Below, in pieces: positions 2,944 through 40,469 of a stretch of DNA of 64,000 nucleotides. How positions within the stretch are numbered: position 1 is the stretch's first letter; the number at the start of each line of letters is the position of its first letter. The DNA comes from Escherichia coli (lineage in GTDB: Bacteria > Pseudomonadota > Gammaproteobacteria > Enterobacterales > Enterobacteriaceae). Made by a program: the position numbers and the translations under genes. Below the pieces are notes generated by a model. It was given only the letters and a program-made list of their open reading frames with translations, searched no databases and was not told the DNA's origin. The stretch is from the NCBI RefSeq assembly GCF_045037415.1, contig NZ_CP173438.1, one strand, 5' to 3'.

Positions 2944-2982
2944 TGTCATTATTGGCAGACAGGATCCGCGGCAATTTCTAAG

Positions 2983-3003
2983 CTGCCTGTACGGCAGTGA
3001 ACT
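2983..3003. repeat. Direct repeat copy 2 (21 bp, ctgcctgtacggcagtgaact)
   Basis: Exact 21-bp match to copy 1. Confidence 0.7.
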
Positions 3004-12282: not shown

Positions 12283-12706
12283 ATCCCCTCCAGAAATATG
12301 TGACTTATTCTTTACGCTGGCAGTATAACGGGAAAGGCCTGCTAATACGTGATGGCATCACATTTAAGCATGGCAAATGTCTGAAAAATGAGCGAATAAT
12401 CGCGTTATACTCCCTCTTGCTGATAAGCCTGCAAAAACAACAAAATCAAATAATTAGCATGATAAATTATTTTTTATTACGCCTAAAGGATTAAATCTTT
12501 CGCTTGCACTACACTGTCAATCAGACAAATGACTATATGGGGCAACCCGCTGTTGCCCTAAATCAAATTTACTGGATTTATTTATCTGGCGAATGATTTG
12601 CCTTCGTTTTTAAAATAGCCGCGCATTATTTCCGTCGTCACTTTTTTACGACGACCCTATAAAACGACCATATTTTTCACAGGGTCAATTTTTAATTGAG
12701 GTGGAT

Positions 12707-13645: not shown

Positions 13646-13816
13646 CAACACCGGTGCGGTTTGTAATTAAAGCGCAAGAATATCTTTAAATGAAAATGAA
13701 TACCCTACCGATCCTTATGCATAACATTTCCTTTTAATTGCAACTTTACTCGTCCTTCCGCTTTCAGTAGTGTGTCATCGCGCATTTCGAATCTTCTTTG
13801 CAAGGACTGGGTTTTC

Positions 13817-14716
13817 ATGTTTTCTGGGCTGTTAATCATTCTGGTTCCCCTGATTGTGGGTTACCTCATTCCGCTTCGCCAAAAAGCTGCATTAAGAGTT
13901 ATTAATCAGCTCTTAAGCTGGATGGTTTACCTTATTCTCTTTTTTATGGGTATCAGTCTGGCGTTTCTCGATAACCTCGCCAGTAACTTGTTGGCAATTC
14001 TGCATTATTCTGCCGTCAGTACTACCGTTATTTTACTGTGTAATATTGCCGCCCTGATGTGGCTGGAGCGCGGCCTGCCATGGAGCAACCACCATCAGCA
14101 AGAAAAACTCCCGTCGCGTATTGCGATGGCGCTGGAGTCGCTAAAACTGTGCGGCGTAGTAGTGATTGGTTTTGCCATTGGTCTGAGTGGACTGGCTTTC
14201 TTACAACACGCGACCGAAGCCAGTGAATACACCTTAATTCTGCTGCTTTTCCTCGTCGGTATTCAGTTGCGCAATAATGGCATGACCTTAAAGCAGATTG
14301 TCCTTAATCGCCGGGGAATGATTGTCGCCGTGGTGGTGGTTGCCAGTTCATTAATTGGTGGTTTAATTAACGCCTTTATTCTTGATCTTCCCATCAATAC
14401 CGCGCTGGCAATGGCCTCCGGTTTCGGCTGGTATTCTCTTTCCGGTATTTTATTGACCGAATCTTTTGGTCCGGTAATCGGGAGCGCGGCGTTTTTTAAT
14501 GATCTGGCCCGTGAGCTGATTGCTATTATGTTAATCCCTGGGCTGATTCGCCGTAGCCGCTCTACTGCACTGGGCTTATGCGGTGCGACGTCGATGGATT
14601 TCACCCTGCCCGTTCTTCAACGTACAGGCGGGCTGGATATGGTCCCGGCGGCGATTGTTCACGGTTTTATTCTTAGTCTGTTAGTGCCGATTCTCATCGC
14701 CTTTTTCTCTGCATAA
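13817..14716 (+). CDS. lysO: Lysine exporter LysO (YbjE), 299 aa
   Basis: ORF 13772..14716; N-terminus MFSGLLIILVPLIVGY at ATG 13817; polytopic membrane protein. Confidence 0.85.
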   Translation: MFSGLLIILVPLIVGYLIPLRQKAALRVINQLLSWMVYLILFFMGISLAFLDNLASNLLAILHYSAVSTTVILLCNIAALMWLERGLPWSNHHQQEKLPSRIAMALESLKLCGVVVIGFAIGLSGLAFLQHATEASEYTLILLLFLVGIQLRNNGMTLKQIVLNRRGMIVAVVVVASSLIGGLINAFILDLPINTALAMASGFGWYSLSGILLTESFGPVIGSAAFFNDLARELIAIMLIPGLIRRSRSTALGLCGATSMDFTLPVLQRTGGLDMVPAAIVHGFILSLLVPILIAFFSA

Positions 14717-14749
14717 TACCTCTCTGGCGGTAGATCTCTGCCGCCAAAA

Positions 14750-14763
14750 TTGCGCTAAATCAA
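14750..14763. promoter_or_regulatory. Putative FNR-binding site in the hcp promoter
   Basis: TTGCGctaaATCAA resembles the FNR consensus TTGAT-N4-ATCAA (right half-site perfect); hcp is known to be anaerobically induced. Confidence 0.4.
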
Positions 14764-14822
14764 TCTCCCTTAAAGTTGCATTAAAAATCTCTTTTATCCC
14801 CGCGTTAAGCGTCTTAACCTTA

Positions 14823-14845
14823 AACATGTATATTAAATATAACTT
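14823..14845. promoter_or_regulatory. Putative NsrR operator in the hcp promoter
   Basis: AT-rich imperfect palindrome aacatgtatattaaatataactt resembling the NsrR consensus (AAGATGyATTT-n-AAATrCATCTT), just upstream of the hcp start. Confidence 0.4.
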
Positions 14846-14859
14846 TAAAAGGTGTGATC

Positions 14860-16512
14860 ATGTTTTGTGTGCAATGTGAACAAACTATCCGTACTCCGGC
14901 AGGAAACGGCTGCTCATACGCGCAGGGGATGTGTGGTAAAACGGCGGAAACCTCTGACCTTCAGGATTTACTCATCGCGACGCTGCAAGGGCTTTCGGCC
15001 TGGGCAGTGAAAGCACGTGAATACGGCATCATCAACCACGATGTAGACAGCTTTGCGCCACGTGCCTTTTTCTCAACCCTGACCAACGTTAACTTCGATT
15101 CTCCGCGTATTATCGGCTACGCTCGTGAAGCGATTGCCCTGCGCGAGGCGCTGAAAGCACAATGCCTGGCTGTAGATGCCAACGCCCGCGTCGATAACCC
15201 GATGGCTGACCTGCAACTGGTGAGCGACGATCTCGGCGAGCTGCAACGTCAGGCAGCAGAATTTACCCCTAACAAAGATAAAGCGGCGATTGGCGAAAAC
15301 ATTCTCGGCCTGCGTCTGCTGTGCCTGTATGGCCTGAAAGGTGCGGCGGCCTATATGGAACACGCGCATGTTCTCGGTCAATACGACAACGATATTTATG
15401 CCCAGTACCATAAAATCATGGCGTGGCTGGGGACCTGGCCTGCCGATATGAACGCGCTTCTTGAGTGTTCAATGGAAATCGGCCAGATGAACTTCAAAGT
15501 GATGAGCATTCTGGACGCAGGCGAAACCGGTAAATACGGTCACCCGACCCCAACCCAGGTCAATGTCAAAGCGACGGCAGGTAAATGCATCCTGATTTCC
15601 GGTCACGATCTCAAAGATCTCTACAACCTGCTGGAACAGACCGAAGGCACGGGCGTTAATGTCTACACCCACGGCGAAATGCTGCCTGCGCATGGTTACC
15701 CGGAGCTGCGTAAATTCAAGCATCTGGTCGGTAACTACGGCAGCGGCTGGCAGAATCAGCAAGTGGAGTTCGCTCGTTTCCCAGGCCCCATCGTGATGAC
15801 CTCGAACTGCATCATCGACCCAACCGTAGGCGCTTATGACGATCGTATCTGGACCCGCAGCATCGTTGGCTGGCCGGGTGTGCGCCATCTGGATGGCGAA
15901 GATTTCTCTGCGGTCATTGCCCAGGCGCAACAGATGGCGGGCTTCCCGTACAGCGAAATTCCGCACCTGATCACCGTGGGCTTTGGTCGCCAGACACTGC
16001 TTGGCGCAGCCGATACGCTGATTGATCTGGTGAGCCGTGAAAAACTGCGTCATATCTTCCTGCTTGGCGGCTGTGACGGCGCACGCGGCGAGCGTCACTA
16101 CTTCACCGATTTCGCCACCAGCGTGCCGGATGACTGCCTGATCCTGACCCTCGCTTGCGGTAAATATCGCTTTAATAAACTTGAGTTTGGCGATATCGAA
16201 GGTCTGCCGCGTCTGGTAGATGCTGGTCAGTGTAACGATGCTTACTCAGCAATTATTCTGGCGGTAACGCTGGCAGAGAAACTGGGCTGCGGAGTCAACG
16301 ATCTGCCGCTGTCGCTGGTGCTCTCCTGGTTTGAACAGAAAGCGATTGTCATTCTGCTGACGCTGCTTTCTCTGGGTGTGAAAAATATCGTCACCGGCCC
16401 GACTGCACCTGGTTTCCTGACACCAGACCTGCTGGCGGTGCTGAACGAGAAATTCGGCCTGCGTTCTATCACCACTGTTGAAGAAGACATGAAGCAACTG
16501 TTGAGCGCGTAA
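14860..16512 (+). CDS. hcp: Hybrid-cluster protein (hydroxylamine reductase / NO reductase) Hcp
   Basis: ORF 14854..16512; N-terminus MFCVQCEQT with the N-terminal Cys cluster at ATG 14860; 550 aa. Confidence 0.95.
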
Positions 16513-16523
16513 GGAGTTTGTCG

Positions 16524-17492
16524 ATGACGATGCCAACGAATCAATGCCCGTGGCGGATGCAGGTTCATCACATTACGCAAGAAACGCCGGATGTGTGGAC
16601 GATTTCCCTGATTTGCCACGATTACTACCCGTATCGCGCCGGGCAATATGCGCTGGTCAGCGTGCGAAACTCAGCAGAAACGCTGCGTGCTTACACCATT
16701 TCCTCCACGCCAGGCGTGAGTGAATACATCACCCTGACTGTGCGGCGGATTGATGACGGTGTCGGCTCCCGGTGGCTGACGCGCGATGTAAAACGCGGTG
16801 ATTATCTCTGGCTTTCGGACGCGATGGGGGAATTTACCTGCGACGATAAAGCAGAAGATAAATTCCTGTTGCTGGCGGCAGGCTGCGGCGTCACGCCGAT
16901 TATGTCGATGCGTCGCTGGCTGGCGAAGAACCGTCCACAGGCCGATGTGCAGGTGATCTACAACGTGCGTACGCCGCAGGATGTGATTTTCGCCGATGAG
17001 TGGCGTAACTATCCGGTAACGCTGGTGGCGGAAAATAACGTTACCGAAGGCTTTATCGCTGGTCGTCTCACTCGCGAACTGCTGGCAGGTGTCCCTGATT
17101 TAGCCTCACGTACCGTGATGACCTGTGGCCCTGCTCCATATATGGATTGGGTAGAGCAGGAAGTGAAAACGCTCGGCGTGACGCGTTTCTTTAAAGAGAA
17201 ATTCTTCACCCCAGTAGCGGAAGCGGCGACCAGCGGTCTGAAATTCACCAAACTGCAACCGGCACGAGAATTTTACGCTCCGGTTGGCACCACGCTACTG
17301 GAGGCGCTGGAAAGCAATAACGTTCCGGTTGTCGCCGCCTGCCGTGCGGGTGTTTGCGGCTGCTGTAAGACGAAAGTGATTTCCGGTGAATATACGGTGA
17401 GCAGCACAATGACGCTGACCGACGCCGAAATCGCTGAAGGTTACGTACTGGCCTGCTCATGCCATCCGCAGGGGGATTTGGTTTTCGCATAA
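16524..17492 (+). CDS. hcr: NADH oxidoreductase for Hcp (FAD/NAD-binding, 2Fe-2S ferredoxin domain)
   Basis: ORF 16518..17492; ATG 16524 preceded by aaggag; C-terminal CRAGVCGCC cluster; 5 nt after the hcp stop. Confidence 0.9.
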   Translation: MTMPTNQCPWRMQVHHITQETPDVWTISLICHDYYPYRAGQYALVSVRNSAETLRAYTISSTPGVSEYITLTVRRIDDGVGSRWLTRDVKRGDYLWLSDAMGEFTCDDKAEDKFLLLAAGCGVTPIMSMRRWLAKNRPQADVQVIYNVRTPQDVIFADEWRNYPVTLVAENNVTEGFIAGRLTRELLAGVPDLASRTVMTCGPAPYMDWVEQEVKTLGVTRFFKEKFFTPVAEAATSGLKFTKLQPAREFYAPVGTTLLEALESNNVPVVAACRAGVCGCCKTKVISGEYTVSSTMTLTDAEIAEGYVLACSCHPQGDLVFA

Positions 17493-40336: not shown

Positions 40337-40366
40337 CAGAACTTTTCCGCAGGGCATCAGTCTTAA
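40337..40366 (+). promoter_or_regulatory. Sigma-E (RpoE) promoter of rybB
   Basis: -35-like gaactt (40339-40344) and -10-like tctta (40361-40365), 16-nt spacer, about 6 nt upstream of the RybB 5' end. Confidence 0.55.
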
Positions 40367-40371
40367 TTAGT

Positions 40372-40450
40372 GCCACTGCTTTTCTTTGATGTCCCCATTT
40401 TGTGGAGCCCATCAACCCCGCCATTTCGGTTCAAGGTTGATGGGTTTTTT
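40372..40450 (+). ncRNA. rybB: Hfq-dependent, sigma-E-controlled small RNA RybB
   Basis: gccactgcttttctttgatgtccccattttgtggagcccatcaaccccgccatttcggttcaaggttgatgggtttttt matches RybB as recalled; 3' terminator stem ccatcaacc/ggttgatgg plus T-run; in the ybjL-rcdA intergenic region. Confidence 0.85.
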
Positions 40451-40469
40451 GTTGCCTGAAATTTATCTA

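Follow-up and report, generated by a model that had tools for sequence, protein, structure and literature searches.

The hcp-hcr promoter of an Escherichia coli chromosome: an FNR site upstream and an NsrR operator across the transcription start

The window considered here is a stretch of 64,000 nucleotides of Escherichia coli DNA (NCBI RefSeq assembly GCF_045037415.1, contig NZ_CP173438.1). By the RefSeq annotation of genomes that are 100% identical over this region, the neighbourhood reads ybjX-ybjD-aqpZ-lysO-hcp-hcr-poxB-ltaE, on the E. coli chromosome, and a 1-kb query over the region returned many E. coli chromosomes annotated with lysO and hcp, at 100% identity. This 1-kb query is present in 5,424 of 5,426 complete E. 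coli genomes; six of its 5,427 matches lie on records labelled as plasmids, which may be mislabelled replicons or chromosomal fragments. The locus is therefore E. coli lysO-hcp-hcr, and the control region studied here, within the 143 bp that separate lysO from hcp, is the hcp-hcr operon's promoter (Table 1). Hcp, which the K-12 annotation calls a protein S-nitrosylase, is a high-affinity nitric oxide (NO) reductase that shields anaerobic enterobacteria from nitrosative stress, and its promoter is a standard reporter of cytoplasmic NO. Over the 171 bp from 14700 to 14870 the window is identical to CFT073, such that the two hcp-hcr control regions show no difference. The promoter of K-12 has the same FNR, main NsrR and 7-2-7 sites at the same positions and differs by four SNPs (14713, 14737, 14782 and 14790), none of which falls in these three sites and two of which fall inside the upstream NsrR-like site.

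Table 1. Features of the lysO-hcp-hcr region, in window positions; signed numbers are relative to the transcription start (TSS)
Feature	Position	Strand	Basis
lysO stop codon, TAA	14714-14716		
NarL/NarP-type 7-2-7 site, TACCTCT-ct-GGCGGTA, centre 14724.5 (-104.5)	14717-14732	+	consensus match, conservation
GC-rich inverted repeat/hairpin, TGGCGGTAGA / TCTGCCGCCA	14725-14746	+	inverted repeat I3, RNA folding
FNR-binding site, TTGCGCTAAATCAA, centre 14756.5 (-72.5)	14750-14763	.	PWM, identity to ChIP-bound K-12 site, conservation
Candidate second NsrR-like site, AAGTTGCATTAAAAATCTCTTTT, -56 to -34, overlapping the -35 region	14773-14795	.	PWM, direct repeat D1
Probable -10 hexamer, TAACCT, -14 to -9	14815-14820	+	inferred from TSS position and conservation
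Main NsrR operator, AACATGTATATTAAATATAACTT, 11-1-11 inverted repeat AACATGTATAT-t-AAATATAACTT, -6 to +17	14823-14845	.	PWM, ChIP, conservation
TSS, T in CATG-T-ATATT, leader 31 nt	14829	+	mark in Rodionov 2005 Fig S1
Shine-Dalgarno sequence of hcp, AGGTG	14850-14854		
hcp start codon, ATG	14860-14862		
hcp CDS, hybrid cluster protein, 550 aa	14860-16512	+	ORF list, RefSeq annotation of 100%-identical genomes
hcr CDS, NADH oxidoreductase reducing Hcp, second gene of the operon	16524-17492	+	SK1144 RefSeq annotation by coordinates, ORF list

The transcription start anchors everything that follows. In Fig S1 of Rodionov 2005 (PMC1274295) this promoter is aligned across seven enterobacteria with the experimentally mapped start marked, and we adopted this start because of the supplementary mark and because it agrees with the value of -72.5 given for the FNR site in Myers 2013. 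The published start is compatible with the two sites that had been proposed, since the FNR site then lies at -72.5 and the NsrR operator extends across the start itself. From the position of the start and from conservation, TAACCT is the probable -10 hexamer; the aligned position in Yersinia and Erwinia reads TATGCT. The hexamer 17 bp upstream, TTTTAT at 14792-14797, makes a poor -35 element, and a promoter scan of 14600-14900 found no consensus sigma-70 promoter (-35 and -10 near consensus, 16-18 bp spacing). The missing consensus is no argument against function, because promoters that depend on an activator typically have a weak core.

The simplest objection to both regulatory motifs is that an AT-rich intergenic region yields such matches by chance, and scans that allow mismatches to a consensus do give matches at about the frequency expected by chance. 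At two mismatches or fewer, TTGAT-N4-ATCAA has 48 matches in the 64-kb window where 33.9 are expected, and Rodionov's short NsrR consensus has nine where 10.3 are, which makes it uninformative here; the strict 11-1-11 NsrR consensus, at three mismatches or fewer, does not match the main operator at all. Such scans cannot separate FNR and NsrR sites from chance, and we therefore turned to position weight matrices (PWMs) from which the locus itself had been left out.

The FNR matrix was built from the 61 ChIP-bound sites of Table S6 in Myers 2013, with hcp and aqpZ omitted. The original prediction had described TTGCGCTAAATCAA as a near-consensus FNR half-site; the motif is where it was said to be, and it turns out to be a full 14-bp site rather than a lone half, agreeing with TTGAT-N4-ATCAA at 8 of 10 positions, with a perfect right half and a degenerate left half (TTGCG). 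Its score of 12.86 bits ranks fourth in the window, where 1.59 equal or better matches are expected per shuffled 64-kb window; by score alone, then, the site is not above chance for 64 kb. The score does lie inside the range covered by the ChIP-bound sites used for training (minimum 11.86 bits), and the PatSer value listed for the hcp site in Myers 2013 Table S6 (ln P -11.6; PMC3688515) passes the genome-wide cut-off of -10.75. With the score alone insufficient, support for the site comes from its position and its conservation. The centre at -72.5 is among the positions that permit activation by FNR (about -41.5, -61.5 and -71.5 to -72.5). In K-12 the identical 14-mer is bound by FNR at -72.5 in ChIP-seq, hcp-hcr is placed in category 1 (direct activation), and hcp expression in the fnr mutant is 0.43 of the wild type (Myers 2013, PMC3688515).

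The best FNR match in the window lies elsewhere, in the ybjD-aqpZ intergenic region (TTGCCCTAAATCAA, 12553-12566, 14.0 bits), and is identical to the hcp site at 13 of 14 positions. It is a known site, the aqpZ/ybjD site being ChIP-seq-bound by FNR in Myers 2013 Table S6 (PMC3688515), and 74 bp farther upstream, at 12478-12493, is a NarL-like 7-2-7 match. A local duplication as the origin of the likeness between the aqpZ and hcp sites was rejected, as their flanks are unrelated.

The matrix for NsrR, 23 bp long, came from 17 sites of Mehta 2015 Table 4, with hcp left out, and here the result is of another kind. The palindrome AACATGTATATTAAATATAACTT, which had been likened to an NsrR operator, scores 24.8 bits and ranks first of ~64,000 positions, a score that none of 300 shuffled windows reaches, with about 12-13 bits in each half. 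It agrees with AANATGCATTT-N-AAATGCATNTT at 15 of 20 specified positions, both halves being degenerate. One part of the original description needs correcting: the operator overlaps the transcription start and is not merely near the start codon. Thus a PWM scan, the check that had been suggested, clearly upholds the NsrR operator, and leaves the FNR site above its published cut-off yet not above chance when taken by itself. In Mehta 2015 (PMC5320621) the hcp entry of Table 4 is the reverse complement of this operator (ln P -23.87, ChIP+), and among the NsrR 11-1-11 sites of the CFT073 genome the identical 23-mer ranks second. NsrR ChIP-seq in CFT073 gave a hcp peak of 12-fold enrichment with its summit at 967971 (Mehta 2015, PMC5320621), which maps to 14832 in the window, 2 bp from the centre of the main operator. 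The expression data run the same way, with hcp up 43.7-fold with nitrate in CFT073 (Mehta 2015, PMC5320621) and hcp mRNA 284-fold higher in a Salmonella nsrR mutant (PMC2884951), and Phcp::lacZ serves as a reporter of NsrR and NO (PMC9052748). Both the FNR and the NsrR site had been predicted in 2005 from enterobacterial alignments (Rodionov, PMC1274295). Judged by sequence position, an operator that straddles the transcription start would be well placed for repression.

Conservation was assessed by scanning one genome per species, which gave 80 loci encoding Hcp at 89-99% identity; the 170 bp upstream of hcp were aligned for 78 of the 80 together with the window (n = 79 species). Identity to the window across the 79 species is 99.1% in the FNR block, 95.9% in the main NsrR block, 92% in the -10 hexamer block and 86% in the 7-2-7 block, against 61.6% in the remaining intergenic columns. 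The exact FNR 14-mer, with its non-consensus TTGCG half, is found in 69 of the 79 species, and the main NsrR site in all 79, at 21.7-27.8 bits. The centres of the two sites are 77.5 bp apart in 76 of 79 species, while the distance to the ATG is variable (-35 to -46); a fixed spacing between FNR and the core promoter is what a class I activator, dependent on the face of the helix, requires. At the level of sequence, this conservation settles that both sites are more than chance. Taken with the NsrR score that no shuffled window attained, and with the ChIP-seq occupancy of identical sequences by NsrR in CFT073 and by FNR in K-12, it leaves the chance explanation refuted, the chance-like frequency of consensus matches notwithstanding.

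It is thus very probable that the hcp-hcr promoter of the window combines activation by FNR at -72.5 with repression by NsrR across the start, in the architecture found in K-12 and CFT073. Under anaerobic conditions, [4Fe-4S]-FNR would bind its 14-bp site and recruit RNA polymerase to the weak core in the class I manner, and the 7-2-7 site at -104.5, of NarL/NarP type, may add an input from nitrate and nitrite. Holo-NsrR on the operator from -6 to +17 would block the binding of polymerase or the formation of the open complex even with FNR in place, until NO nitrosylates the iron-sulfur cluster of NsrR and NsrR leaves the DNA, whereupon FNR-dependent transcription could proceed. With activation depending on FNR and release of NsrR depending on NO, hcp-hcr would therefore be expressed only without oxygen and with NO. 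The steric mode of repression and the class I mode of activation are inferred from the positions of the sites. The anaerobic, NO-responsive regulation that had been ascribed to hcp is borne out by FNR and NsrR ChIP-seq on identical sequences and by the derepression in the nsrR mutant, and the further suggestion that FNR activation is gated by NsrR derepression draws support from positions, PWM scores, conservation, and published binding and expression alike. The interpretation is supported, and the promoter is a textbook one; confirming its sites here adds nothing new. What the case does illustrate is that a real two-input promoter (oxygen AND nitric oxide) was recognisable from sequence alone by the first-stage reader.

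One published observation seems at first sight to point elsewhere. In a medium without nitrate, Myers 2013 (PMC3688515) found FNR bound at hcp with no sigma-70 ChIP peak, and attributed this to sigma-E, calling hcp a sigma-E site. It could accordingly be proposed that a sigma-E promoter, or read-through from lysO, accounts for the transcription of hcp, with both motifs incidental. A scan found no terminator-like site between lysO and hcp, and a weak sigma-E-like match (three mismatches) lies at 13740-13767, ~50 bp upstream of lysO. Against this proposal, no match to the sigma-E consensus with three mismatches or fewer occurs in 14600-14900, while the same scan recovers the known rybB promoter at 40338; the sigma-E paper cited by Myers is silent on hcp/ybjW in its main text; and the near-perfect conservation of the motifs and of their spacing would be left unexplained. 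Moreover, FNR present and polymerase absent without nitrate or nitrite is what gating by NsrR predicts. We regard transcription from a sigma-E promoter or by read-through as the source of hcp expression as highly improbable. As a separate matter, the match at 13740-13767 and the lack of a terminator between lysO and hcp make some read-through into hcp conceivable. The RybB sRNA gene itself lies at 40375-40453 (Rfam, 105 bits), with the sigma-E-type promoter that served as the positive control of the scan at 40338-40365.

The original prediction took in the FNR and NsrR motifs, and its inventory of sites was incomplete, as it left out a NarL/NarP-type site, a second NsrR-like site, the core promoter and a hairpin behind lysO. 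The NarL/NarP-type site begins directly after the lysO stop codon. Compared with TACYYMT-N2-AKRRGTA, its left heptamer is perfect and its right heptamer has two mismatches, and six such matches occur in the window where 2.44 are expected. In 44 of 73 species the left heptamer agrees with TACYYMT throughout, and its distance to GGCGGTA does not vary. A NarL/NarP site at -104.5 is reportedly already in print, the position being ascribed to Filenko 2005 and Chismon 2010; our literature search on NarL at -104.5 found no report. The hairpin starts 9 nt past the lysO stop codon and overlaps the right heptamer. Folded as RNA it reaches -16.5 kcal/mol (z = -3.77), and about 70 of 79 species retain the stem, with a loop that varies in sequence and length. 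It is not a canonical terminator, because no U-tract follows it, and an intrinsic terminator scan of 14600-14900 likewise found none. The conservation of the right heptamer is ambiguous because the heptamer doubles as an arm of this conserved hairpin. This overlap of hairpin and heptamer, together with the upstream NsrR-like site, makes up the only part of the region with residual research value.

The 7-2-7 site brings in a further alternative, namely that induction by nitrite or NO runs mainly through NarL/NarP at the upstream heptamers, or through S-nitrosylated OxyR, with the palindrome a minor contributor. The conserved heptamer pair at -104.5 favours such a scheme, and Seth et al. are said to have described, in 2012, control of hcp by OxyR-SNO, which we counted on the same side. 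In addition, Rodionov 2005 (PMC1274295) marks candidate NarP sites in the hcp promoter and cites the NarL/NarP dependence of hcp induction. The size of the derepression in the Salmonella nsrR mutant (284-fold, PMC2884951), the standing of hcp among the strongest NsrR ChIP targets, and the use of its promoter specifically as an NsrR reporter (PMC9052748) are all hard to reconcile with a minor role for the palindrome. The distance from the 7-2-7 site to the FNR site, moreover, drifts between 32 and 34 bp among species, as against the fixed spacing between FNR and NsrR sites. On balance, we think it unlikely that NarL/NarP or OxyR carries most of the response, and retain NsrR as the principal NO-responsive regulator acting on top of FNR.

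The second NsrR-like site, AAGTTGCATTAAAAATCTCTTTT, forms direct repeat D1 with the main operator, from which it is set exactly 50 bp upstream, and the flank CCTTAAA is common to both. At 19.23 bits it is the second-best match in the window and exceeds the training median of 18.55 bits, and 10 of 300 shuffled windows reach its score. Its left half, AAGTTGCATTA, is listed in Mehta 2015 (PMC5320621) as a possible NsrR half-site of CFT073, a PWM prediction, and is the only part of the site to have been noted previously. An NsrR-like site at the -50 offset is found in 63 of 79 species, with scores that run from -5.6 to 24.4 bits. Strong copies occur in Kluyvera, Klebsiella, Trabulsiella and Entomohabitans, as well as in both Yersinia and one Erwinia (EO) sequence of Rodionov Fig S1; in Salmonella (1.1-4.7 bits), Enterobacter, Leclercia and Kosakonia the site has decayed beside an intact main operator.

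The idea that two NsrR operators repress this promoter, the main one from -6 to +17 and an auxiliary one from -56 to -34 that lies over the -35 region and the gap separating FNR from polymerase, would extend rather than replace the best explanation. The rank and score of the upstream site, its exact 50-bp separation and shared flank, the listing of its left half by Mehta 2015, and its strength in the genera with strong copies argue for it. Opposed to these are the collapse of the auxiliary score in Salmonella, Enterobacter, Leclercia and Kosakonia despite an intact main site, the poor right half (6.2 bits), and the ChIP summit, which sits on the main operator and not between the two; the conserved A/T-rich bases (AAA, CTTTT) could have another role, in the docking of alpha-CTD or in the -35 region. 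Weighing the two sides, we would put repression through two operators at somewhat below an even chance, and a functional auxiliary operator at 14773-14795 is for us correspondingly doubtful. More tentative still is an evolutionary scheme in which the upstream site is a lineage-variable NsrR operator, apparently ancestral, that has stayed strong in Yersinia, one Erwinia, Kluyvera, Klebsiella and Escherichia but degenerated in Salmonella, Enterobacter and Kosakonia. If a second operator does exist, the tightness or the NO threshold of hcp repression would differ among enterobacterial lineages.

Within E. coli the upstream site is polymorphic at 14782 and 14790, where ~1,085 of 5,424 genomes have T/T, as do the window and CFT073, and ~3,642 have G/C, as does K-12. 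Outgroup sequences point to T at 14782 and C at 14790 as the ancestral bases. In the window allele the left half scores 13.2 bits vs 9.8 in the K-12 allele, and the right half 6.2 vs 8.7. A role for these SNPs as a tuner of repression was considered and rejected, since one half gains and the other loses, with almost the same total (19.2 vs 18.25 bits). At about the same place, near window position 14790, one complete genome (NZ_CP024223.1, E. coli O169:H41 strain 2014EL-1345-2) carries an IS421 element (IS4-like) that interrupts the hcp promoter and separates the FNR site from the core promoter, an insertion which should uncouple hcp from activation by FNR.

The hcp operator belongs to a familiar set. 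The ytfE, hmp, ygbA and nrfA promoters of E. coli likewise carry an 11-1-11 operator of the AANATGCATTT type over the core promoter and are derepressed by NO. The hcp promoter differs from them in that both halves of its operator are degenerate and in that repression is layered on a class I FNR activator at -72.5. FNR represses hmp, and its position at nrfA is -41.5. Outside the enterobacteria, hcp is likewise controlled in response to nitrogen oxides by HcpR, of the CRP/FNR family, in delta-proteobacteria and clostridia, and by NorR2 with sigma-54 in Vibrio, often with an FNR-like palindrome upstream (Rodionov, PMC1274295). Whereas those systems rely on a single dedicated activator, the enterobacteria split the logic between FNR as a global oxygen sensor and NsrR as an NO-sensing repressor.

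Far from the promoter, the window also holds a single CRISPR-DR4 repeat at 2975-3002 on the - strand, its sole CRISPR match (Rfam, 50.1 bits), adjoining a tRNA at 2784-2868. This repeat is probably the vestigial remnant, associated with type I-F systems, that is known between clpA and infA or nearby in E. coli lacking those cas genes, in what is called the clpA-infA region.
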